The notes beneath the pieces were generated by a model. It was not told the origin of the DNA. It searched no databases and was given only the letters and a program-made list of their open reading frames with translations. Positions 4,513 through 58,128 of a DNA stretch of 64,000 nucleotides are shown one piece after another. The translations under genes were made by a program, and so were the position numbers. Numbering within the stretch: position 1 is the stretch's first letter; each line of letters starts with the position of its first letter. Source of the stretch: Centroscyllium fabricii (taxonomy: Eukaryota); assembly GCA_051313645.2 (NCBI GenBank), contig JBNRSN020000004.1, positions 239,692,001 to 239,756,000 of the forward strand, in the 5' to 3' direction.

Positions 4513-4656
4513 ATTGAAGGAAATGAAGAGAAAATATCTGTAGTTAGCAACTAGTCGTGGCAAGTAAACTAACCAGCGAAATCAGCTGTCCACATATTAG
4601 CAGGCCAAAAGAAAACATCGTCACTTACCTTTGGAGAATAGCTAATAAAGTGAAAA

Positions 4657-7600
4657 ATGGAAGGGTTACACCCACCGGTGAAACTTCAGTTGACAGGTAA
4701 TGTGGCTGAAAATTGGAACAGGTTCAAACAATGTTTTGAGTTGTATTTAGCAGCAATCGGAGCTGATGAGAAAAGTGATAAAATGAAAGCATCAGTGTTC
4801 TTACACGTCATGGGTGATGAAGCACTGGAGGTATATAATAACCTCACATTCGCTGCTGATGGAGAAAAAATGAAATTGGATAAAATAATGGAACAGTTTG
4901 AGGCATACCACATACCTAAACATTACGTGATGTTTGAGAGGCACAGATTTTTCACATGTGTACAGAAAATGGGAGAAACTATTGATCAGTATGTGACTGA
5001 ACTGAGAAACAGAAGCAAAACATGTGAATTTGGTGGACTGACAGACTCGCTGATAAAAGACAGACTTGTGTGTGGTATTCCAGATAATAGTCTAAAGGAA
5101 AGACTGCTAAGAGAGCAAAATCTAGACCTGGGAAAAGCCATAGCACTCTGTAGGGCTACAGAGACTGTAAAGTCACAGGCAAAGGAGCTATTTAGTGACA
5201 GTAGCTGCAACATGGATGCAGTGAGAAAGAATGGACACAAACCATTTAACAAAAAGAGCGCCAACATGAAAAGAGGCATGGCCAGTGAACAAAAATGGAA
5301 GGGGCAATCGAAAGCCATGTAGTCGATGCGGTACACAACACCTACCAAAAAAGTGTCCAGAATATGGTAAAACATGCAATAGATGCAACAAAAACAACCA
5401 GTATGCCCGTTGCTGTAAGAACCAAGTGCAACAAAGCAAGGTCCATGCAGTAGATGAAAGGGAGATAGAGGAGTTCTATGTGCACATTGTGTCTGAAAAC
5501 AAAAAAGAAAAAAGAGACTGGATGTTGACATTAAAAGTGAATGACATACACATTTCATTAAAATTGGATACTGGAGCACAAATTAATGTGATATCAGAGA
5601 CTGATTTTAAGAAAATTAGACCCAAACCAAAGATACATGGAACAAAAGTGAAAGTGACAGGATACTCAGGTACCGTGCAAGGAAAATGCATTGTCAAAGT
5701 GACACACAAGGACAGAGAGCACATGCTAGCATTCATTGTGGTGCCAAAGGATGTGCAGGCCATACTAGGTTTAATAGCCTGTGGGAGACTGAACCTGGTA
5801 AAGAGAGTCCTCGTTGTGGAAAGCGGAGGAGAGACAGTCTATGGTGAACTCATGAAAGAGTACAACGACCTATTTCAGGGTCTAGGCTGCCTTCCAGGAG
5901 AACACACAATCAGAGTGGGTAAAAGTGTGCCTCCGATAATACATCCATGCAGAAAAGTTCCGCTTGCTCTTCAAAAGCAACTGAAGGCAGAGTTGGACAG
6001 GATGGTAAGCCTGAACGTGATTCAGAAGATAAATGAGCCAACTGAGTGGATGAGTTCCCTTGTCGTTGTGAACAAAAAGAATGGAAAGCTCAGAATTTGC
6101 CTGTATCCAAGAGATCTAAACAGAGCAATAAAGAGAGAGCACTTCAAGCTTCTGATGCGTGAGGAAATCATGTCACAGTTTGCAAATGCAAAGTATTTCA
6201 GCAAGTTAGATGCATCATCAGGATTTTGGCAGTTGAAACTGGACGAAGCAAGTTCAAGACTGTGCCCGTTCAATAGTCCATTTGGCAAATACAGATTCCT
6301 AAGGTTACCATTTGGCATTGCCTCAGCTCCTGACGTGTATCACAAAACTATCCATATGGTCTAAGAGCACCTGGAGGGAGTTGATACCTCAATGGATGAC
6401 ATCATAGTATGGGGAACCACGAGAACTGAGCATGACAAGAGACTGAAAAAAAGTGCTGGAAGCAACAAGGAAAACAAACCTGAAGCTGAATAGAGAGAAA
6501 TGCCAGCTCAGGGTGACAGAACTGACATTTGTGGGAGATATCCTTAGCAGTGAGGGCATCAGACCAGATCCCAGAAAGGTGTCTGCCATTGGAAATATGC
6601 CAAGGCCACAATGCAAAAGGGACGTGCAGAGGTTTAATGGAATGATCAACTACGTGGGTAAATTCATATCCAACCTCTCAGAAAAGATAGCACCACTTAG
6701 AAGACTAACTGAAAAGAACATACAATGGGAGTGGAATCATGAGCATGAGAAGTCATGGAGTGAACTAAAGAAACTGCTCACAGAGGAACCAGTTCTGAGG
6801 TTTTATGACCCAGCGAGACCCATCAAGATATCATCAGACACGTCACAGTGTGGGCTTGGTGCCGTTCTTCTGCAAAAATATGACAACTGGCAACCTATTG
6901 CATATGCATCGCACTCAATGACAGACGCGGGGACGCAATATGCTCAAATAGAAAAGGAGCTGCTCAGCATCACATACGCCTGTGAAAGATTTCACCAGTT
7001 TGTGTCAGGACAAGCAATCAGTGTAGAGACTGACCATAAGCCCTTGATTGCATTGTTCCAAAAGCCACTAAATGTCTGTCCACTTAGAATACAAAGAATG
7101 ATGATCAGGCTGCAACGCTATGCACTGAATGTTGCGTACACTCCGGGTAAGCTGATGTACACAGCAGACACGTTGTCTAGAGCTGTTGACCCAAGAGAGC
7201 CCGCAAACACCAAAATGGATGAAGACGTGAACGCCTACGTGGACATGATCAGAAGTGCACTGCCCATAGCAGATGCAAAAATGGAGCTCATAAAGACTGA
7301 GACAAACAAAGATGAAACACTGAAACGACTGTGAAAAAACATCTTGGATGGATGGCCCAACATGAAGCAAGACTGCTCACCTGACATTGCAGAGTACTGG
7401 AACTGCAGGGCGGAACTATCAGTGGTCAAAGACATCATCTACAAAGGAAGTAAAATAGTTATCCCAAAGAGTCTGAGAAAAGAGATGCTAAAAAGGATTC
7501 ATGGAGGACATCTGGGAATCAAAAAGTGTAAGAAAAGAGCACGAGAGGTGATGTACTGGCCACGAATCAACCATGATGTGACAAATGAGGTGTCAATCTG

Positions 7601-8530
7601 CACAATATGCTGAAAATATCAAGCAAGCAATCCTGCAGAACCAGTAAAGCCACACCCAGCACCAGAAAGACCTTACCAGAAGGTAGGCGCTGACCTATTC
7701 ATATGTCAAGGGAAGGACTATCTTGTAGTCACAGACTATTACTCCCTGTATCCAGAGGTGTGTAGACTGTACACCACCACTGCAGATGCTGTGATAACAT
7801 GTATGAAAGCCATATTTTCCAGACATGGCGTGGCAAGCGAGGTCTTCACAGACAATGGACCCCAGTTTTGCAATTCAAGTTTCCAACACTTTGCCAAAGA
7901 GTGGGACTTTGTCCACACAATGTCAATTCTTAATTTTCAACAGTCCAATGGACTAGTGGAAAAATCGGTCCAGAGAGTGAAAAGACTGATGTACAAGGCA
8001 AAAGACTGTGGAACTGACTTCTACCAGAGCATGCTAGTACAACGCTGCTCGAGTGTGGTATGTCACCAGCCCAACTCCTTATGGGACGTATGCTAAGATC
8101 AAACCTACCCATCCCGGAGAACCTCCTGAAAACAAAAGAGGGAGTGAAAGTGAGGAAGTTCAAAGAACAGAAAGAAAAGCAAAAGTACTACTTTGACAGA
8201 GGAACACAAAACCTACATGAACTCCACACTGGTGACCAAGTAAGGCTCAAAGTCAAAACAAACATATGGACTCAGAAGGGAGCTGTCCTTAGTGAAGTCC
8301 AACCAAGATCAGACACCATTCAGACAGATGAAGGTGCTGTTCTTCAAAGAAATCATCGGGCTCGTCTCATGGGACCAGCCACAGCAGGCAGAAAGACTGA
8401 TACTGTTGAACAACCTGATTACACAGCTGAGAACTCATCATCTGAGGCAACAACTCAGATTCAAGGACAATCAATCAGACGATCCTCAAGACACATGAAA
8501 CCTCCTGAGAGACTCATAGAGCAAATTTAA
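4657..8530 (+). pseudogene. Gypsy gag-pol polyprotein broken by frameshifts and stops
   Basis: gag 4657..5322; zinc-knuckle-like CSRCGTQH..C and CNRCNK; protease LDTGA; RT 'FSKLDASSGFWQ..LPFGIASAP..MDD'; RNase H 'SDTSQCGLGAVL..YAQIEKE..TDHKPL'; integrase 'H..HLG..C..C', 'TDNGPQF', 'SNGLVEKSV'. Split across at least 6 ORFs. Confidence 0.93.
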
Positions 8531-18176: not shown

Positions 18177-18529
18177 TTTAAAATAAAACTGTTGGACTAT
18201 AATCTGGTGTTGTGTGACTTCTTGCAATTGTCCACCCCAGTCCAACACCGGCACCTCCACATCATCACTTGGCATGTGCTGACCTCACACAGCACAATGT
18301 GGCGTTAACCTGCAGGAAGCCCCTCTCACCAGCGCTATTTAAACGGTTCATGCAGTACTTACAGTTAGTTGCTGCTTTATTATTTCTGGCTGTTACTTGA
18401 CTTCTAGACATATTTTGCTCTGTTGTATCACTCTGGAAAGTTCACTTTGTCTGCGCAGAAAGATTTTGCTGGGCCTGCACTGTTGTTTCTCTTTGACTCA
18501 CAAATAGTCTGGATGCAGACAAGGGTAGC

Positions 18530-19560
18530 CTCATAGGGCTGCCTTTGGTGTTGAAGGATGAGAGGGAACAGCATGGAAGACCCCGCAGAGCAGGAGAAGC
18601 TGACAGAAGAAGGTGGTCGCTAATCAGGAGGTCACATCCACAGAGGGTCTTCAGGGAGCAATTGTCCGACATCAGCTTTACTGAGGATCAATGTGTGAAG
18701 TGTCTTCGCTTCACCAAGGAGGCTATCACCGTGCTATGTCACCTGCTGCAACCAGAACTCCATACTCAATCCAGGGCATGGGCAGTGCTGCCTGCGGCTG
18801 TCAAGGTCACCGTGGCTCTCAACTTCAATGCCGTGGACTCCTTTCAGGCTGCAACAGATGATATCAGCAATATCTCACACTTTACAGTACTCCGATGTAC
18901 AAGCGTGGTGAATACAAGGTATTGCATGCGTGTCAGGCTTCTCCAGAGTGCAGGGTGCCATTGACAGCACACACATTGCATTGTGTGTTCCCCATCACCA
19001 GCCTGGCATCTCTGTTGATCAAAAGGGATTGCACTCTCTCAACGTACAGCTGGCTTGCGACCACCGGCAACTCATCGTGTAGGTTTGTACCCGCTGTTCC
19101 GGCAGCAGTCATGACTCTTTCATCCTGTGTCAGTCCTCTGTGCTGTCTTTATCCCAACCAGACCGCCAAATTATAGGGTGGCGATTGGGTGACAAGGGAT
19201 ATCCCCTTATGATTCCAGTCAGGAACCTGTGCATAGCTGCAGAGCATCCTACAATAAGAACCGTACTGCCACAGGGAACATCATCGATCAGACAAGCGAC
19301 CTGCTCAAGCAACACTTTCGCTGCCTGGATCATCATGGAGGAACTCTGAAGTGTACCCCTGAGCGGTTAGCCAGATTTGTCATTGTCTGCTGTATGTTCA
19401 ACCAGGTCAGCATCATGAGGGATAAGCCCTTTCCACCACCTGGGCAGTAACAAGTACAGGAGGAAGAGTGGAAGAGGAGGAAGAGAAGGAGCAGGATGAG
19501 GAGGAGGGGCAGTGACCACGAGAGCCCTCAGAGACAAGCTCAATAAGGTGTGCTTCAACT
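18530..19560 (+). mobile_element. Decayed Harbinger transposase with most of the DDE domain
   Basis: 'LRFTKEAITVLCHLLQP..LPAAVKVTVALNF', 'LGDKGYPL', 'NIIDQT..LLKQHFRCLD..CCMFN' and an acidic C-terminal tail; frameshifted. Confidence 0.85.
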
Positions 19561-41239: not shown

Positions 41240-41800
41240 CCCATATCGTTCCCTGATGTAGTCCAACGTTCTCCTAGTCAGCCTCCTACCTTTCACCTTC
41301 CAAAACCTTCAGCTCATCCAGGCTCCTGCTGCCCATTCCTTAACTCACACCAAGTCCAGTTCAACCATCACCCCGTGCCCGCTGACCGACATTGGCTCCC
41401 GATCCGGTAACACTGTAATTTAAAACTGTCATCCTTGTGTTCAAATTCTCCATGGCCTCGCCCTTCCCTATCTCCGCAGCCTCCTCCAGCCCAACATCCC
41501 TCTGAGATATCTGCGTTCCTCCAATTCTGGCTTCTTGCACATCCTGAATGTCCGAGCCCCACCATTGGTGGCCGTGTCTGCTGCTGTGCAGGCCCCGCGC
41601 TTTGTAATTCACCCCCTAAACCTCTCCGCCTTTCCACCGCCCTCTCCTCCTTTAAGGAGCTGGTTAAAACCTACCTCTTTGACTAAGCTTTTGATCATCT
41701 GTCCTTCTTCGGCTCCGTGTCAACTTTTGTCTGATAACGCTCTTGTGAAGCAACTTGGGACGATTGACTATGTTAGAAGTGTTATATAAATGCAATTTTT
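41240..41800 (+). mobile_element. L2 LINE 3' fragment
   Basis: Reverse-complement homology to 11090-11620 ('aaaacctacctctttgac'). Confidence 0.8.
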
Positions 41801-44800
41801 TTACAATACCCGTGTATTGGATTGGCTGAGTAACCCCTATCTAGTCCCTTTACAATCTGTGTATGGGACTGGCTGAGTACCAGTTATCCAGTCCCCTGAC
41901 ACTCTCAGTATCTGGCCTACGAGATTGGCTAGGTATTAGCCGTCTTCCCTCTGGGTCGATACTAATTGTACACGCTTAATTAGTTCCCTGTTGTAACAGC
42001 TGCTGACAGATAAACAGTGAAATGGACACGATTAAACCGCGTTTGGTGTCATTTTAGATTCCATCCTACCGTGATGATCTTTGTAATTGAAAGAAGCGTG
42101 TTACCAAAGATCATTCTCTAACAGTTGGAAAGAGAAATGGCTACATATATATATAATTGCCATTTATATAATATATATATAGCCATTTATATATTATATA
42201 TAACATCACTTTGCACACTGCGCATTACAACAAAACAAATAGCGCGTGAACACGGGAATAATAAAAATACATTTGACCGCAACAAATTATTGGTGTAATA
42301 TTCTCTGTCTTGAATTACAATGGTCTGTGGAGCATTGAATTCCCCTTAAAATAATCCTGAAAGGGAGACTTAAAAGGTAATGTTTATACAATTACGCAAA
42401 GAGTTCCGAGGTTAAATAACATGAACATGCTGCGGCAGAATTACGAGCGAGGCAGGCACACATCAGCCCTTGCTTGCCTGTGTGGTTTTGGAAAGGCTGC
42501 AGACTCTCTCTGCACTTGTGTGCACAGCCTCCCTCCGGGCCCCAATTGTCACCCGTTGTCTTCGTGCTCCCCCTACTGTTGATCCGCGTTACTGCACAAT
42601 AATCCCAATTTACTGGTCCCGCATTACACATTTCCTCATACCAATTAAACTGTTCCTAACAGAGGCGTTTCCTCTTTTCGTCACCAAAATTAATTATACT
42701 GATTTGTTTGGAGTTGTTGCACGTCATTATGGTTGAAACGAACAATTTAAACTTGCCGACTTTTTGTTTAATTAATTTTACATTAGTGTTGATAGACCGC
42801 ATCACTCCTGTTGGACTGCAAGAGCAATGGGAATGTACATGATATTGACACAATCCCATTTGGTTTTTTTCCAAAAGTGAGAAACGATTACGATGATTCA
42901 GCTAATATATTAGGCAAACGAAGACCACAACGTACAAAGCAGGATTCGGGTATGTTCATTAGGAACCAACTGGAATAGCATAGAGGCCGTTTAAATTAAC
43001 TTATAGGAGACTGCGAGCAATCGAAAAGGTGGGTTGTGGTTTGATTGTCGACCATTTTGAGACGCGGTCCAATTTAAGAGGTGTCGAAGGAAAAATACAG
43101 GTTTCCTTTAAAAAAATATTATTTTATTTGCCGGACACAATGCGCGAGTGAATTATTCAAGAGCAAAAAGTAGTCTATAATTGTGAAACAGACCAGATTT
43201 TTTTTACTGGTTTTCATCTCCGTCTAAACTAATTAAGGCATACGTATTTATCCAAGTTCGCTTGCCTCGTAAAATCTACACGTTAGATAGTTGCATTGTA
43301 AAAATGGAAGTTTAAGAACAAACCATAACTTACCTATCAGCAAACTCTGTACTTTGTTACTGGGGGATCTTGCACTTCACACGGTAGCATTTTCACAAAT
43401 GCATTATTAAGTCGTTAGTTCATAACATAAAGACGATGCATTCGTCTGAGTTACGTCTAACGATATTTAACATTGCCATTTCTAACCAGTGGAAATATAT
43501 TTTCTCTGCTTGGTACAAGTGTAACTTACACAAGAGTGCCACAGGACACAGAAGAAAACCAATAGGATACGGCCATTTATCGCTTTTTAATCTGTAGAAT
43601 TTAACATTAACACATCCATAATGATCAAATGCTGGGCTGAAATAGTCCAGTTTCATTTACACTATATGCTGACATTAATCGCTGTAATAATTCATAGCTT
43701 TTAGTGCGTTTTTATAGTGTGTAATGGTAACACAGTCACTCAAGAAATGTTTGACTTCCTGGGGTGCATGGCAGTGTGGAGTAAGCACGCGTTTGAACTC
43801 CAAATTCCATCCGTTAAAAGAATTTACGAGGGTAACATGAAATGATGGAATTGGTAAATTCTCGAAAATGTGACCACAACATATAGCCAATTAAAATAAA
43901 TATTTAAAAATAATAATTCTGTAAGCAGCACATATTAATGTGTTGCAATTAATTTGTGAGCACAGAAAAACGCTGGCGAATTGGGTTTGGCGGAGCAGAA
44001 CCCCGTCAAATATGGGTAGGTTGTGGGAGTTTTCTACCCCACTGTTGCGGATAAGAAATATCACTGTCGATGAAAGATCAATAATCTGAGCATGGTGCTC
44101 TTTGCTATGGACTGCTCATAACACTCTTAGTGCCAATAAAACACTTTACTGAGATTGGCGAATGCGTTTCGGCCAATCAGCTGCGAGTTTGTTTGCCCTT
44201 GCACCCATGTTTCCACCGATATGTTTGGGGTTCCTGCGAAGCTGGGCGCTGCACTCCCCGCTGACTGACAAAAACGGGAGGAGCGGGGAATTTTGCATAA
44301 AGTTGTCAGATGCAATCAGAAAGAAACGACAGCAACATCGAATCTACCCAGTGGATGCACGGACGCTGATCCGTGTTGTACTTTGGTGCAGGTGATTCTC
44401 CGACCTCCCACTCCGCACATGCCATTAGATAGCGACCAAAGCCGCTTAACTTGTTACGAGTTCTTATAATGGATTCATTGAATCAGAAAAAAATGTAGAC
44501 ACTAAACAATTCAATGAATTAGCTTCAAGGCATGATATAGATTTCAATAATAGAGGCTTTCAATTTGTCTCGGAATGTCCAAAACTTGTACAAGTGCAGC
44601 AGTACGAAATATATGAATTATTTCTATAAAAAGGTGAAATGTAGATTTGTTTAGGGAATTCTTGATGAACCTACGTTTACTATTTTAGAAGTTTAAGAAT
44701 GATTTATTTCACTAAAATTCATTAAACGAAGCCTAAAGCCTAAATTGAATAACACTGTAGTCACATACAGTGAGCGATGGCTGTAGTTTCAGACTGCAGT

Positions 44801-47800
44801 TAAAACGGAAATAAATCTGAAAGCCAAGTTACTAATTTCGGTCGAAAATAGCACGAGCTCCACGTTACCATATAAACGTGGTACCATATAAACAGACAAT
44901 GTTAACTAAGAAGTACAGTAATGGGGCAGGGAATAACTGCTTTAGCGAGTTTAAAATAGGCCAGGGCAGCAAGGACACTCCATGTGTTCGACACTAAGCA
45001 TTTTATTACTTAGAGACTAAATATTTGTTCAAAAATCTAATGTAGGTGCCTTTGAAGAAAGCCTAGGTGCATTGCCAGATGTAATGACCAATAAATCTCT
45101 AACCTCCCATGTCCCTGTGCTAAATTAGCTGGACCAAAGCCATTTGTCCAACCATATTTCACATACTCAGCTCCAACACAGCCGGCCCTGCCCACCTTTA
45201 TGTAAAGTGCACAATTATGTCAAAAAATAAATGTGCTTCTGGACTTCGACGCAAATAACACTTTTGATCTCGGATCACACTGCGGTTGCCGCCTCAGTGT
45301 CCTTGACACGCACAGATTGAAGTTTAACCGGAGGCGTGTTTACGGTTTTACTTTGCTATTTAAACAGATACATTCTAATAAAATGATCCATTTGCATAGG
45401 TGCAGGATTTATCCTGCTTCAAGAATGATTACTTTCTGGAGCATGGTAAAATATTGCGTTCATCACATAGGTGCTTTTACCTAAGTGCAGCCGAATACAG
45501 CACCAAGATCATTCAGTGATTGCAACCTTTGGAGGTAAGACTCATAAAACTTAAAAGAATAACATTCTTGAATGTCTTCCATTAACTCTGCAGACATCTA
45601 GTGGGAAAGCTATGTCACTACAAGGGCATAGACTGGAATGATCTCGCCTGGAAATCTGGAATATATGTACATCGTTTTTGCTCCTTCTTCACAGAGTGCC
45701 AGACATTATCCTTGCCCGCCGGTCGTTTCAAGTTTTGCAGTGATTCCCTCCGTTATGAGCGAGTTTCCTGCAGTCTCGTCATTGGGGAGTCTGCTACTCG
45801 CAGCATCAGAGTGGTTGTGAGTTGCAGTTAGTCCCGAGAGCTCCTTATCCGACCTGAGCCTGGGCTGAACATGCAGGGGTCAGCCATGCTTATCAGGGAG
45901 CTATAGAGTTCCCACGACCCTCTAATCTCACTGGTCAAATTAAGACGGATACTAATGAACCAGACCTGAGCATAACCCATTAACATCACTCGTCCTTTAC
46001 TCCTAGCGAAGAAGTCATTAATTACCCTCCTTCCTTGCGTCTGTTGGAGCTTGCTAAGAGGACGAGTTAAAGTGACTGGGATCAATTTCTGATCAATTTT
46101 ATAACATTTGCAATCAAAATATTCTAATGCTAAGATTAATATAGGGAGATTCGATAAACATAATTAACTAAAATGTCAAAAATAAAATCACTGGTGTGAT
46201 ATTTTGCAGAAATATATACAGACCATTTTTTTTAACTAAAATAATTCAACATCCATTATGGAGCCGGAAAAAACTATACAATTAGTTCACGCCTTCTGGC
46301 AGCTTTATTTTTCCTTTGCATAATATCAGATGTAAGTTTAGCTTTTTATGTACTGTATTGCCTGATGCAAGCTATCTCGTGTATAAATTAAGTTAATTTT
46401 CGGTGTGGAACACTTCATTTTAAATGTCTGCTGAATATTGCAGCCTCATTTGCCTGCGTGAAGCAACGGAAAACCTCGTTCACGATTAAGATCGTGTGTG
46501 GTATAATGTTCCTAGTGTGTTACATTTGAGCTTCATAAATTGACAAAAAGAAACGTTTCGGTCTAAAAGCGATAGTAAAACTTTATGTTGATACTATCCT
46601 CCACTCAAGTGCATAAAACAATATTAACAGATTATCATTTTACGATGACATAATTTTTAAACAGTTCACTGGGAGGGTGACGAGATGTTTGTCACTGCCT
46701 AGGAAGCATTTTTTTAGACTGGAGAAAGAGAAAATAAACCGATCATCCTTTCATGCTACCTTTATCGCCGAAACTTATAGAAGTCATCGAAGACTTTCAG
46801 GGGCAATTGTGAACAAAGATGTGCAGATGTTTGTTTCGATATGTTTATACAGATAGCCGAAACCAGTCACAGAGGAGATAGTTTGTTTAAATATTCAGTG
46901 TCATAATGTAAATCCTACAAGCACCGGTGATTTGATTTTAAAGGAATAATATTGGTTTATAAATACATTTTGCTGCTGCGTGTTGAAGTGCACCTTAAAT
47001 AATAAAATAGCCCATTTATTGAATATATACAATATGACGTTGCCCCAAGGTTAATGACTTATTAAGGTGGAGAGTACACTTTAATTAAAATACATTCATA
47101 GTAATAAAATAGAAACTTGTTCAGGGAATATATGCACCTGTATTTCCTGTAATACCTTTTAGCAAATTCTTTGTTTTCACATATATGTTTGACAATAACC
47201 AAGAATGAAAATTAGGGATGAAAATTCAAAGCAATAAACGGTAAGTAGCATCAAGATACGTTGATTTGTAGCACTTACGTCTAGCTTATCATTATAGTCT
47301 GTAAGAAACACCGACAGAAAACAATCTTTGTAAAACATACAGTCATCGACAACATTAAATATATCACTTATTATTTGGTATGTAACAGGTATATGTAATG
47401 GAGTTACAGATTGTAACAGAAAATAATGCCATTGCAAAAGATGTGTCGTTCAAGGAGAACAATAAATGATATTTGTCTATTCACGTCTCACGATTGCAAG
47501 CATTTGTAATGCCTTATATTAAACTATCTTTGGCGTTTAGCTTTGACATTGTAATTGTTAAATGTATGAAAGATTGATTTCTTATAGTGTGGACACCAGT
47601 TACAACAATCTCGTTTTCTAGTCTGCATTTATTCGTATGTCTTTAAATCTAATGATATTTTATACCTACAAACTATGGGCTTTGGCATTTTGTCGTTTAT
47701 AAAGGAATGCATATAAAACTTAGGATAATCTTTGCATCTTCTTGCGGGCGTTTATGAGTAGTGCAGACTTGAGGAGATACTTGTCTTCTATACATTGAAA

Positions 47801-48101
47801 ATCTCACATAGAGTTTTAGGTAGCAGTTGTTTACCGAATTTTCATGATTTGAGATCATAGATTCAAATTACCTCAAAGCTGTCATCTGCACATTTATATG
47901 TGTATTCGAAAATGTTATTTGCACTCATTGTACATATTTAACACCTTTGGGTTTTTATCATAAAGTAAAGTATCACTATGGAACTTTATATGCATTTAGT
48001 TAAAGCGATGAGCGTTTTCTTCAGATATTAATAAAATCGTACATAGTATTAAATACAGTGGAAATAATTGAATCGAATAATAGGGTATTACTCGTTTACA
48101 G

Positions 48102-48452
48102 CTCCGTGTGCTCATTCACGCTGGTCTGCCCACCCACGAGCTCAGTACAGACAGAGCAAGAAAAAAATCCAACATAGCAAACCCCAGACTGCAGAACAGG
48201 ACCGCGCTTTCGAGGACACCTGCTTTCTGACGCCTGAAATATGACAACAACGACAATAGCTGTGGCAAAATTGGGACTGTCAGAACAGCAGATAAAGACC
48301 AGGAGATTCCCAAGGAGGAATATTCCAGGCGGGCTCCAATACGTAATGAGCCTTATTTGATGGGAGTCCGCTACAATAACATTTTCTCTTGATCGGTAAA
48401 AATCTGGTTTGAAGATCAACATCAGAACAAGGAAAGACTCATTCGCCGTCAG
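48102..48452 (+). pseudogene. HoxA14: Hox paralogue-14 pseudogene (HoxA14 psi): exons 2 and 3 with split homeobox
   Basis: After the acceptor tttacAG (48100-48101, phase 1) the frame reads 'PCAHSRWSAHPRAQYRQSKKKIQHSKPQTAEQDRAFEDTCFLTPEI*', then after a frameshift 'IAVAKLGLSEQQ' (to 48291). A 104-bp intron with dead ends follows, then 'VKIWFEDQHQNKERLIRRQ' (48396-48452). Compare recalled Hox14 RQRKKRIPYSKQQIAELE.AFE.N.FLTPE.R..IS.KLGLTERQ^VKIWFQNQRQKEKK. It lies 5' of HoxA13 on the same strand. Confidence 0.88.
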
Positions 48453-49383
48453 CAAACTGGAACAAATAATTTAGTTATGGGGTGCAGAGCTGAAACCGGA
48501 CCTTTACAAATAAATTATCTTTTTATGTCAATATTTTTGATAAATATTTACAAATGGCACCAAAAACGAGGAAGTGGCGATGTAGTTTGGTTTAAAGCAT
48601 GAAATATGTAATTATTATTTTGAAGCAAATGTATTGCTATTGACTTGTTCTAAACAATTCAAATTAGAGGTAAATTTAGAATAGAATAGAAAATATGCAC
48701 GACTTTAAGTTTATTATTGTATATTTCCGTGTTTTTATTTTGAATAAAAGGTTCAGTTAAATTTTGTTATAATATATTTGTTAAAAAGTGTGATTTTTTT
48801 AACCTTTTACAAAAATACGTCTTCTCACTAATGGTCTCATTATCTTTTAATAATGTTGGTGCTAAGTATATTGCAACAGTTTCATGAACAATTATGGCAA
48901 TACATTTGAATTACTTTTTAACGTGCAATTTTATTTTGCAATTATAGCGTAAAAAATATACGCACCCACTGTGCATAATAAAGGTGATACAATCGAACGT
49001 GTAAGGTGCCCTCACCAGAGTGAGGGGCCGAGTCAGATATACACTCACAATTCAATGATGTCACTTACTCCAATTCAAGTACAGTATACTGTATTCTTAA
49101 ATTGTATTTGATAATAAAAATAAACAACATTTTATATCGAATGATGGACTAACATTAGTAAATGTGAAAAACGAAGCATGTTACTCTTTAACCCATTGTC
49201 TATGGACGTATGACATTGCTCAATGGCAGCCAACACAAATACATATGCAAAATGTTTGTATATTGTATTCTGAAACGGCTTGATAATTGAAGTTATACCA
49301 ACACGCATGATATCTAGAGATGCCAAACCCAGTTCTCATAAGAAACAAGTTGTTCTCCAAGGACATATGATACATCTACAAAG

Positions 49384-49643
49384 TCCAAAGATGTGCGGGT
49401 TAGGTTGATTGGCCATGATAAATTGACCCTTAGTGTTAGGGGGATTGAATATGTGGGGTTTCGGGGATAGGGTGGGATATGTGTCGGTGCGGGCTCGATA
49501 AGGATCGAGGGATATGGGGAGAGGGCAGGGGCGGGGTACTGAGTTTGGATGATCAGCCATGATCTCATTGAATGGCGGAGCAGGCTCGAAGGGCCGAATG
49601 GCCTGCTCCTGCTCCTAGTTTCTATGTTTCTATGTTTCTATGT
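49384..49643 (+). mobile_element. 5'-truncated HE1-like SINE
   Basis: 3' half is near-identical to the reverse complement of 30584-30815, with a (tttctatg)n tail. Confidence 0.9.
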
Positions 49644-52084: not shown

Positions 52085-52230
52085 TCAACGCGTGAATGAC
52101 AGCACTCACATTGGCTAGACTGCAACTTTCAACTTGACCTTGGCCTTTAGGCCGTGTCTAACCCGTATGTAAAAGAGCTGTCCATTTGGTTGCTGCCATT
52201 TTGTAGCATAACCTACACTGTGGCCGTTTG
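52085..52230. promoter_or_regulatory. Candidate conserved cis-element upstream of HoxA13
   Basis: Motif-dense block: ATTGG (CCAAT reverse) and the nuclear-receptor motif tcaacttgaccttgg (52129-52143). Conservation was not tested. Confidence 0.4.
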
Positions 52231-55225: not shown

Positions 55226-55874
55226 ATGACAGCGTCAGTGATACTTCATCCCCGCTGGATCGACACGGTGATGTTCGTCTACGACAATAGTTTGGATGAA
55301 ATTAATAAAAACATGGATGGATTTCCAGGAGGGAACTTTACAGCAAATCAATGCAGGAATTTGATGGCCCATCCAGCATCCCTAGCCCCCAGCTCTGCCT
55401 ACTCGTCGAGTGAAGTGCCAGCCCCTGGTATTGCTGAACCTGTCAAACAGTGTAGTCCTTGTCCTGCTGTTCAAACTTCGTCTAGTGCTTCCCTTCCTTA
55501 TGGATACTTTGGGAGCAGTTACTATCCCTGCCGAATGAGCCACCATAGCAGCATCAAGTCCTGTGCTCAGCCCTCCACCTTGTCTGGCTATCCTGCCGAC
55601 AAATATATGGACACGTCCGCCGGCGAGGAATTCACCTCCAGAGCCAAGGAGTTCGCTTTCTACCAAGGTTACGCGGGACCATACCAGCCGATGCCCAGCT
55701 ATTTGGACGTACCTGTGGTTCCCACCATCAGCGCTCCGGGAGAACCGAGACACGAAACATTATTACCCATGGAGAGCTACCAGCCCTGGGCAATTACCAA
55801 TGGGTGGAACGGTCAAGTCTGCTGTTCAAAAGAGCAGCCCCAAGCTACGCACCTCTGGAAATCCAGCCTGCCAG
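55226..55874 (+). CDS. HoxA13: Homeobox protein Hox-A13, exon 1
   Basis: [70 protein letters not shown] is the Hox13 N-terminal domain, A13 type. Donor G|GTAAGT at 55875. Confidence 0.96.
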
Positions 55875-56298
55875 GTAAGTATAGATAAAAAGCAACGCGC
55901 TTTCAATTATCTCGACAAACGAGTTTAATGAAGGGAACAAAGCATTCTGATGTGTAAATACGTACGGGTACCTGGATAATATATAACATGGATTATAATT
56001 AAGAAATTATACTCGTAATTCCCCAATACAAGTAATACTATATAATCATTTATTTTAATGTTTAGTGTATTGCCTAAATATTATTTTGCATGATTTTTCA
56101 TAACGACCTCACAATTCTCACGCATTTTTCAAAATTATATTTTCTGCTATATCATTTATTGCAAAACGTATAGTCTATATAACGTCTCCCTGGTGTGATC
56201 TTGAACTTGATTCCGGCGACAGTGTCCGCTTTTAAACTTTCATTTGGTGGCAAGTGCTAAATGCCATGGATGGTAAGGTATGCTATTTCTCTTCACAG

Positions 56299-56543
56299 AC
56301 GTCGTTTCGCATCCTTCGGATGCGAGCTCTTTTCGGCGTGGGAGAAAGAAAAGAGTGCCTTATACCAAAGTGCAGTTGAAAGAACTTGAGCGGGAATATG
56401 CTACCAATAAATTCATTACCAAGGACAAACGAAGGAGGATATCGGCATCAACGAACCTCTCCGAGAGACAAGTCACTATTTGGTTTCAAAACAGACGAGT
56501 CAAAGAAAAGAAAGTTCTTACCAAACTGAAAAGTAACAGCTAG
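56299..56543 (+). CDS. HoxA13: Homeobox protein Hox-A13, exon 2 (homeodomain); spliced product 297 aa
   Basis: Acceptor ttcacAG at 56297-56298, phase 1. '[72 protein letters not shown]' carries A13-diagnostic DVVSHPSD and EREYATNK. Intron is 424 bp. Confidence 0.96.
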
Positions 56544-57035: not shown

Positions 57036-58109
57036 ATGTATGTTTACGCACTACATTTTCTTTGGTAGGGATGCGCTATCTCTAAAGATATTAATGTACA
57101 GGTAGAAGGAAGAATATATTCTAAACAGCAATGTATATGGGACAGTAAATACATACTATTCTAGGACTCTACATTTTGTCTTATGTATATATTTAGGAGC
57201 ATCGACGCCTTTCGCAATTAAACAACAAAGCAGATTACCATTTTCTACAAAGCGGAATAAAGATCTGTCTACAAACATGGAAACCCCCCTCCCGTGTAAA
57301 TTAACTAATTATTAAGTCTTTTTTGTCTGCTTGTTATATTTTCCACCTCACATAGGATTAGACTCCACGCAGACTTAAGGCGCATAGCTTCCTTCCTAAA
57401 GATGACAACATCTGTGTGCAATTGTATTTTTTTTAAATACCGCATTGTATATCTGCTTGCACCTCCCCTGCTTAGTTAATATATACCAATTATAGTTACA
57501 AAATTAAATCACGAATGATAATCATGAAATTAAGATATGTCTTGCATTACTATTATGCAGCTGTTTAATCTGTATACCCTATTCTCTTTATTCGTCTCGT
57601 GAATTACTTGCATTAAAACAAATTATTTCACGAATAAAAAGGTCTTTATAAACAACAGCGTCGCATTTTTTGTTAAGAAACATGACGCCAGCTAAAACAT
57701 TTTAAAACGAAAATGTAGAGAATATGGGCCAAGTAGATGTGTTCTTGATGTCAGCTAGGCCATTTGTTTAAAATGCCTTGAAAACATGCTTTCGTACTAA
57801 CGTTCTTAGAAATAATCAAGACATTTGCTAAGAATAAAAGGTATCCGTGAATATTCCCTGCTGTTTTTAATTGAAAACATTACTACCAGTGGAATCCCTA
57901 AGTTTGTGTGAAAATGTGCTGAAAGTTTAAAAGCATTAAGCATTAGAGTCTCCATATTCTGATTGGAAATATACACTCTGCTTTTGGTTTGTATATGGGG
58001 GCAGGGCGTTAGGAGAGGGGCTTAAACCTTGACCTTGACGAAAACAGATAGTCTTTGACCTTGACGATTAACAGCCTATGAATAGTCATGAAGTGCATTG
58101 GTAGAACAA

Positions 58110-58128
58110 GTGCGCCATCTACTGTCAC
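58110..58128 (-). promoter_or_regulatory. CTCF core motif between HoxA13 and the next 3' Hox gene
   Basis: gtgcgccatctactgtc; the reverse complement GACAGTAGATGGCGCAC fits the CCASYAGRKGGCR consensus closely. Confidence 0.6.

Follow-up and report, generated by a model that had tools for sequence, protein, structure and literature searches.

The locus described here raises a simple question: is the degenerate homeobox that lies upstream of HoxA13 in Centroscyllium fabricii what remains of a HoxA14 gene, and, if so, how much of that gene can still be read? The analysis was carried out on a stretch of 64,000 nucleotides (the window). Its outcome, to which a probability of about 0.95 is given, is that the locus is HoxA14 itself, reduced to a unitary pseudogene and decaying in place at the 5′ end of the chondrichthyan HoxA cluster.

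The locus and its HoxA13 neighbour

The window is vertebrate DNA in which a chondrichthyan HoxA cluster has its 5′ end, and the cluster is recognized as HoxA because the neighbouring gene is an intact HoxA13, the sole intact homeobox gene in the window:

55226–56543, + strand: intact HoxA13 (exon 1 at 55226–55874, exon 2 at 56299–56543), with Pfam HoxA13_N and Homeodomain

The top match of its exon 1 is a Hox-A13-like protein of Mobula (94% identity), nearly all of the named proteins among the best 120 of 350 matches are Hox-A13, and the whole protein is identical to the ray protein at 282 of 297 residues. The degenerate homeobox sits 6.7 kb upstream, directly 5′ and on the same strand, as is the case for HoxA14. 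No other homeobox motif was found in the six frames of the window. Evx1 would be expected further 5′ on the opposite strand; the 45 kb upstream, up to the end of the window, show no homeobox motif of the Evx type.

The first 41 kb are repeat-rich and CpG-depleted (CpG o/e 0.38 upstream of 41 kb). From about 42 kb on, the DNA is AT-rich, has almost no self-repeats and keeps its CpG (o/e 0.7–0.9 in long stretches), and the pseudogene region itself (45000–48600) has zero self-repeat cover and a CpG o/e of 0.64–0.87. The switch from repeat-rich, CpG-poor (o/e 0.38) to repeat-free, CpG-keeping DNA (o/e 0.83) is abrupt, falls at about 41800–42000, some 3.7 kb 5′ of the pseudogene, and is likely the 5′ edge of the HoxA domain. 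Elements recognized by eye include a decayed Gypsy-like LTR element at 4654–8530 (gag, protease, reverse transcriptase and integrase in the list of ORFs), Harbinger-like transposase fragments (1217–1831 and 18497–18964) and many CR1/L2-like LINE fragments (9–37 kb). The only self-repeat after 42 kb is a lone SINE-like repeat with a short tandem tail, which lies between the pseudogene and HoxA13 (49379–49642).

Several further features of the region were noted in passing. The motif TGACCTTGAC is present twice at 57990–58075, about 3 helical turns apart and 1.5 kb 3′ of HoxA13, a pair which we take to resemble nuclear-receptor half sites, and a stretch similar to this region lies near 52130. Candidate CTCF-like motifs, judged against a consensus, occur at 58113–58125, 45592–45604 and 46290–46302 (all on the − strand, with 1, 2 and 2 mismatches), and candidate sites of this kind number seven after 40 kb. 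A GC-rich patch with a CCAAT box (44100–44420), about 1.3 kb upstream of exon 1 of the pseudogene, is possibly the conserved element 5′ of HoxA14 that is mentioned in PMC2746220.

A homeobox broken in two

The degenerate homeobox is made up of two exon remnants and the spacer that divides them:

48102–48291, + strand: pseudo-HoxA14 exon 2, with the 5′ part of the homeobox (tblastn match for 20 of 20 Hox14 proteins; codon analysis)
48292–48395, + strand: former homeobox intron, phase 0, 104 bp (donor AT, acceptor CG)
48396–48513, + strand: pseudo-HoxA14 exon 3 (tblastn; helix 3 reads WFEDQH; 38 codons to 48509)

The stretch 48149–48241 translates as RQSKKKIQHSKPQTAEQDRAFEDTCFLTPEI and runs into a TGA stop (48242–44) that replaces an invariant Arg; IAVAKLGLSEQQ follows in a different frame (48256–48291). 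The indel zone between them (48245–48267) carries a net +8 nt relative to the spacing of HoxA14, a figure counted by eye (23 nt from the stop to the K of KLGL, against an expected five codons) and obtained for the zone as a whole. The spacer separates a Q codon from a V codon, with a donor that reads ATAAAG at 48292 and an acceptor that reads CG at 48394–95; no substitute splice sites were found nearby (no GT in 48280–48330, no AG in 48370–48402). From 48396 onward the sequence reads VKIWFEDQHQNKERL. The original prediction had described the peptides, the TGA, the change of frame, both damaged splice sites, the 104-bp spacer and an AG at 48100–01, and each was recovered at the same coordinates when the letters were re-read.

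The change from WFQN to WFED that had been noticed in helix 3 is likewise real, and is part of a larger one: where paralogue 14 has WFQNQR (PMC3509897), the relic has WFEDQH, so that the motif is lost at three positions, each of them one base away. HoxA14 tails run 34–37 aa from VKIW, and the exon 3 remnant has 38 codons to 48509, after which a TAA, one base out of frame, is possibly the old HoxA14 stop; the frame of exon 3 itself continues to a stop at 48600. The signal AATAAA is also found at 48509.

When isolated, the three homeobox pieces gave no Pfam homeodomain match, no Atlas cluster and no word-index homologue. A frameshift-aware alignment of exons 2–3 with the C-terminal parts of three HoxA14 proteins scores 124–135, against maxima of 35–40 (means about 27) in 30 dinucleotide shuffles of the region, which was picked after the match was known. 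The original prediction had staked its case on the reconstructed peptide scoring better than shuffled sequence, and on this scale it does.

A first exon 2 kb upstream

The original prediction placed the relic within exons 2 and 3, which stand, but its extent was incomplete, as exon 1 had been missed 2 kb upstream:

45555–45637, + strand: possible decayed N-terminal extension, HoxD14-like, one base out of frame with 45638
45638–46038, + strand: pseudo-HoxA14 exon 1 (ATG at 45638, 1-nt frameshift near 45764, stops at 45855 and 45981)
46039–48101, + strand: former intron 1, phase 1, 2063 bp (GTCTGT at 46039, TTTACAG ending at 48101)

In tblastn searches all three HoxA14 proteins match the region 45638–46043 (E 1e-9 to 3e-9), with an alignment that starts at the first Met of HoxA14; the best E among 14 HoxD14 proteins is 0.019. 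The frameshift-aware score of exon 1 is 129–131 with HoxA14 (shuffle maxima 36–38), 32–60 with five chondrichthyan HoxD14 proteins and 31, the shuffle level, with the HoxA13 of the window; a Huso sequence trimmed at the wrong point is excluded from these scores. Identity amounts to 43–48 of about 125 residues for HoxA14 and 20–22 of about 123 for HoxD14, and at the 68 columns diagnostic of A14 versus chondrichthyan D14 the pseudogene is A-like in 31, D-like in 14 and neither in 23. Near its 3′ end exon 1 lacks about 7 codons, and translation from 45638 would end after 60 codons. Intron 1 keeps its GT donor and AG acceptor at the point where HoxA14 proteins continue from exon 1 to exon 2, a junction placed by protein alignment.

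The three collinear exon remnants and the spacer that splits the homeobox match the layout of Hox14 genes, which have three exons and a homeobox split by an intron (PMC3509897, PMC3707753). That a HoxA14 unitary pseudogene spans 45638–48513, and is thus larger than first noted, is well supported.

Upstream of the ATG, LTLQTSSGKAMSLQ at 45582–45623 aligns to HoxD14 residues 10–23, scoring 36–38 for four of eight queries without being the best match in the window. In a codon-decay profile the spot 45555–45637 ranks 3rd or 14th of 1278 bins and ends at 45635, as predicted. These observations are suggestive only of a remnant of a HoxD14-like N-terminal extension, which the three annotated HoxA14 proteins do not have.

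Which Hox14 gene

Reference proteins were gathered with a profile of the three homeobox pieces set on the HoxA13 homeodomain. It retrieved 150 proteins, four of which had the paralogue-14 helix 3 and a Hox14-type homeodomain; one of these, used as the next query, gave 37 matches, including a HoxA14 homolog (Neoceratodus), HoxD14 (Heterodontus) and HOX14I (hagfish). Only three references bear Hox14 names (P0151, P0157 and P0134), and the rest were labelled A14 or D14 by their grouping in the tree; most Hox14 proteins in public sets are automatically misnamed, for example as Hox-B9a-like, Hox-D12-like, Hox-A4-like or hhex-like (P0113, P0152–P0166). A PDB search with the hybrid profile was driven largely by the HoxA13 scaffold of that profile and does not count as evidence for the pseudogene.

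That the homeobox is of Hox14 type, as had been proposed, is borne out by several comparisons. All 20 Hox14 proteins match 48113–48241 in tblastn searches against the window (E 8e-13 to 6e-5), whereas two Hox9 proteins have no match and a hemichordate posterior Hox protein reaches E 0.44. Exons 2–3 score 108–112 with five chondrichthyan HoxD14 proteins, 83–99 with two cyclostome Hox14 proteins, 49 with the HoxA13 of the window and 40–42 with Hox9. With the pseudogene read with X at its breaks, homeodomain identity is 26–33 of 56 for 19 Hox14 proteins against 16–19 of 56 for 13 others (Hox13, Hox9 and invertebrate posterior Hox). A homeodomain tree, built with Hox10–12 and HoxB/C/D13 absent, places the pseudogene inside Hox14 at 99/93, and weakly beside a HoxD14 (81/72), so that A14 and D14 are not separable there. 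The position of the break also agrees with Hox14: a paddlefish HoxD14 reverse primer (PMC4778128) reads TERQ followed by GTGAGA, and the sturgeon protein continues with VK, so the primer would run into the intron donor, in register with the break at 48291/48292. Splice junctions are placed here from proteins and this one primer.

Whether the relic is A14 or D14 can be told from exon 1, which, unlike the homeobox alone, separates the two. In a full-length tree of 20 rows, the read-through of the pseudogene is sister to HoxA14 at 99/97, and the AU test rejects its grouping with D14 and with cyclostome Hox14 (p=0.02 each). The tree includes 12 chondrichthyan Hox14 proteins, each of which falls with D14. 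The branch of the pseudogene is long (1.11 at full length, 2.28 for the homeodomain), and the tree software flags the placement as unsure. One protein, P0165 (a second Chiloscyllium), was excluded from the trees. The comparisons of this section support a Hox14 pseudogene, and specifically HoxA14, an identity that had been assigned from position alone and to which the exon 1 match, the tree and the AU test now also point.

Decay and alternative explanations

At least seven inactivating lesions can be counted in a locus that keeps its introns and its ancestral place: three stops, two frameshifts and two splice-site losses. Exon 1 has a frameshift and two stops, exon 2 a stop and the net +8 nt, intron 2 has lost both splice sites and helix 3 is altered. 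Because of these lesions, no homeodomain protein can be made from the locus. Of 57 homeobox codons, 24 encode none of the residues that HoxA14 has at that place, and in every one of the 24 a single base change would restore a HoxA14 residue; in 2000 shuffles, with a mean of 11 and a maximum of 19, this number was never reached. Changes affect 14 of the 35 residues that are invariant across 19 Hox14 proteins, and four Arg codons, including the stop at 48242, have a change of the CpG-deamination type (the ancestral codon being assumed). Such codon changes are what decay without selection on the protein would give. HoxA14 would have become dispensable while cartilaginous fish retained HoxD14, and would then have lost its frame, with point changes (four of the CpG-deamination type) and small indels gathering in the absence of selection on the protein. 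It is proposed that the slow change of chondrichthyan DNA (low rates are reported in PMC3964593 and PMC10587355) and the exclusion of repeats from the Hox domain have kept the relic readable.

Could the locus be a relic of another paralogue, either a HoxD14 or HoxB14 that was moved or duplicated, or a tandem Hox13 copy that has decayed? The homeodomain alone does leave room for this, as it does not split A14 from D14 and the AU test restricted to it leaves a Hox13 grouping unrejected (p=0.069), and no intact HoxB14 reference was found for comparison. Exon 1, however, scores far higher with HoxA14 than with the five chondrichthyan HoxD14 proteins or the HoxA13 of the window, the full-length AU test speaks against D14, the homeobox of the pseudogene is split where that of the neighbouring HoxA13 is not, and position and strand are those of HoxA14; an origin from another paralogue is largely refuted and very improbable. 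It is harder still to credit that sequencing or assembly errors have disfigured an intact HoxA14, given seven or more separate lesions, 14 changes at invariant residues and the intact state of HoxA13 at a distance of only 6.7 kb, with 95% identity to the ray protein.

A different proposal accepts that the protein is dead and supposes that the locus may still give rise to a non-coding RNA that is spliced, or contain cis-elements that act on the HoxA cluster, by analogy with what has been proposed for the bowfin hoxd14 pseudogene, which is transcribed, spliced and patterned (PMC8423624). The intact GT and AG of intron 1, the short ORF from 45638, the AATAAA at 48509 and the setting in CpG-retaining, repeat-free DNA would all suit such a role. 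Yet both splice sites of intron 2 are gone, the decay looks neutral, the survival of two dinucleotides is expected at about 0.2 changes per site, and no Rfam match was found in the window; moreover, lungfish hoxa14 is, according to PMC7875771, an exception to the high expression of posterior hoxa genes in fins. A transcribed or regulatory role is accordingly rated as quite unlikely.

Relation to known Hox14 genes and relics

Powers and Amemiya reportedly described a HoxA14 pseudogene in the horn shark in 2004, for which no confirmation was found in the literature searched. According to PMC2746220, a HoxA14 gene is not believed to be present in skate or horn shark. The original prediction's statements that HoxA14 is a pseudogene in the elephant shark and intact in coelacanth are both in print: PMC3707753 (citing Ravi 2009) gives HoxA14 and HoxB14 as elephant shark pseudogenes, and PMC3038165 gives an intact HoxA14 for coelacanth and lungfish. 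Caecilians, too, have an intact HoxA14, and turtles and crocodilians retain remnants of it (PMC11600591); paralogue-14 pseudogenes in several cartilaginous fishes are attributed to likely independent mutation (PMC3509897). Chondrichthyan HoxA14 pseudogenes are already published, and the present locus adds a further case to those described, sharing with that of the elephant shark the gene, its position in the cluster, its state and the class of animal. A comparison of HoxA14 lesions across chondrichthyans was not found in the literature, which is weak evidence of absence since key primary papers fell outside the search; the supplements of PMC3038165 (no match) and PMC8423624 (no hoxa14), and PMC1845163, PMC3692103, PMC3534614, PMC7875771 and PMC10115646, added nothing on a HoxA14 pseudogene.

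Compared with the HoxA14 genes of coelacanth and lungfish (P0152, P0151 and P0113), the locus has an orthologous exon 1, the same three-exon layout, a place 5′ of HoxA13, the FLTPE and KLGL motifs and a similar tail length, but each of its three exons is damaged in itself or at its splice sites, and the WFQNQR motif is gone. The HoxD14 proteins of sharks, rays, chimaera and sturgeon (P0157 and relatives) have an equally close homeodomain (30–33 of 56) and an intron after TERQ, whereas their genes are intact, lie in a cluster beside Evx2 and HoxD13, and have an exon 1 only about 17% identical to that of the window. The hoxd14 pseudogenes of bowfin and gar (PMC8423624) and the HoxA14 remnants of turtles and crocodilians (PMC11600591) are likewise Hox14 unitary pseudogenes that have stayed at their cluster end. 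That of the bowfin, however, keeps WFQNQR and the splice junction in the homeodomain, and is expressed (PMC8423624); the relic described here has lost both of these sequence features.

Age and meaning of the loss

The loss of HoxA14 is probably old, of the order of hundreds of millions of years, although the date rests on assumed rates. The JC-corrected distance is 0.16–0.20 per nonsynonymous site (SE 0.04–0.05), which at an assumed 0.5–1e-9 per site per year corresponds to about 160–400 million years. This is no firm date, as the pedigree rate available for the epaulette shark is expressed per generation and spans a tenfold interval, and a chondrichthyan rate per year was not found. With skate and horn shark separated for at least 180 million years and the chimaera split at least 375 million years old (PMC2746220), the estimated age makes one loss common to many elasmobranchs plausible.

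A more far-reaching reading would join these strands: the locus would be a datable fossil of a single ancient loss of HoxA14, its lesions (the 48242 stop, the AT donor and the exon 1 frameshift) common to elasmobranchs and perhaps chimaeras; it would keep a D14-like N-terminal extension and, lying at the 5′ margin of the HoxA domain, might still be transcribed into a regulatory RNA. As a whole this is unlikely; if true, a single loss would go against the published view of independent paralogue-14 decay, and the ancestral HoxA14 would have been longer than the gene annotated in lobe-finned fish.

For the Hox14 family, the finding fits a reciprocal loss, in which cartilaginous fish keep D14 and lobe-finned fish keep A14. 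The relic refines this known story and is mainly useful for dating the loss of HoxA14; it is also a neutral clock inside a Hox cluster. Its three readable exons offer discrete characters (stops, indels and splice changes) that bear on whether cartilaginous fish lost HoxA14 in a single event or repeatedly.
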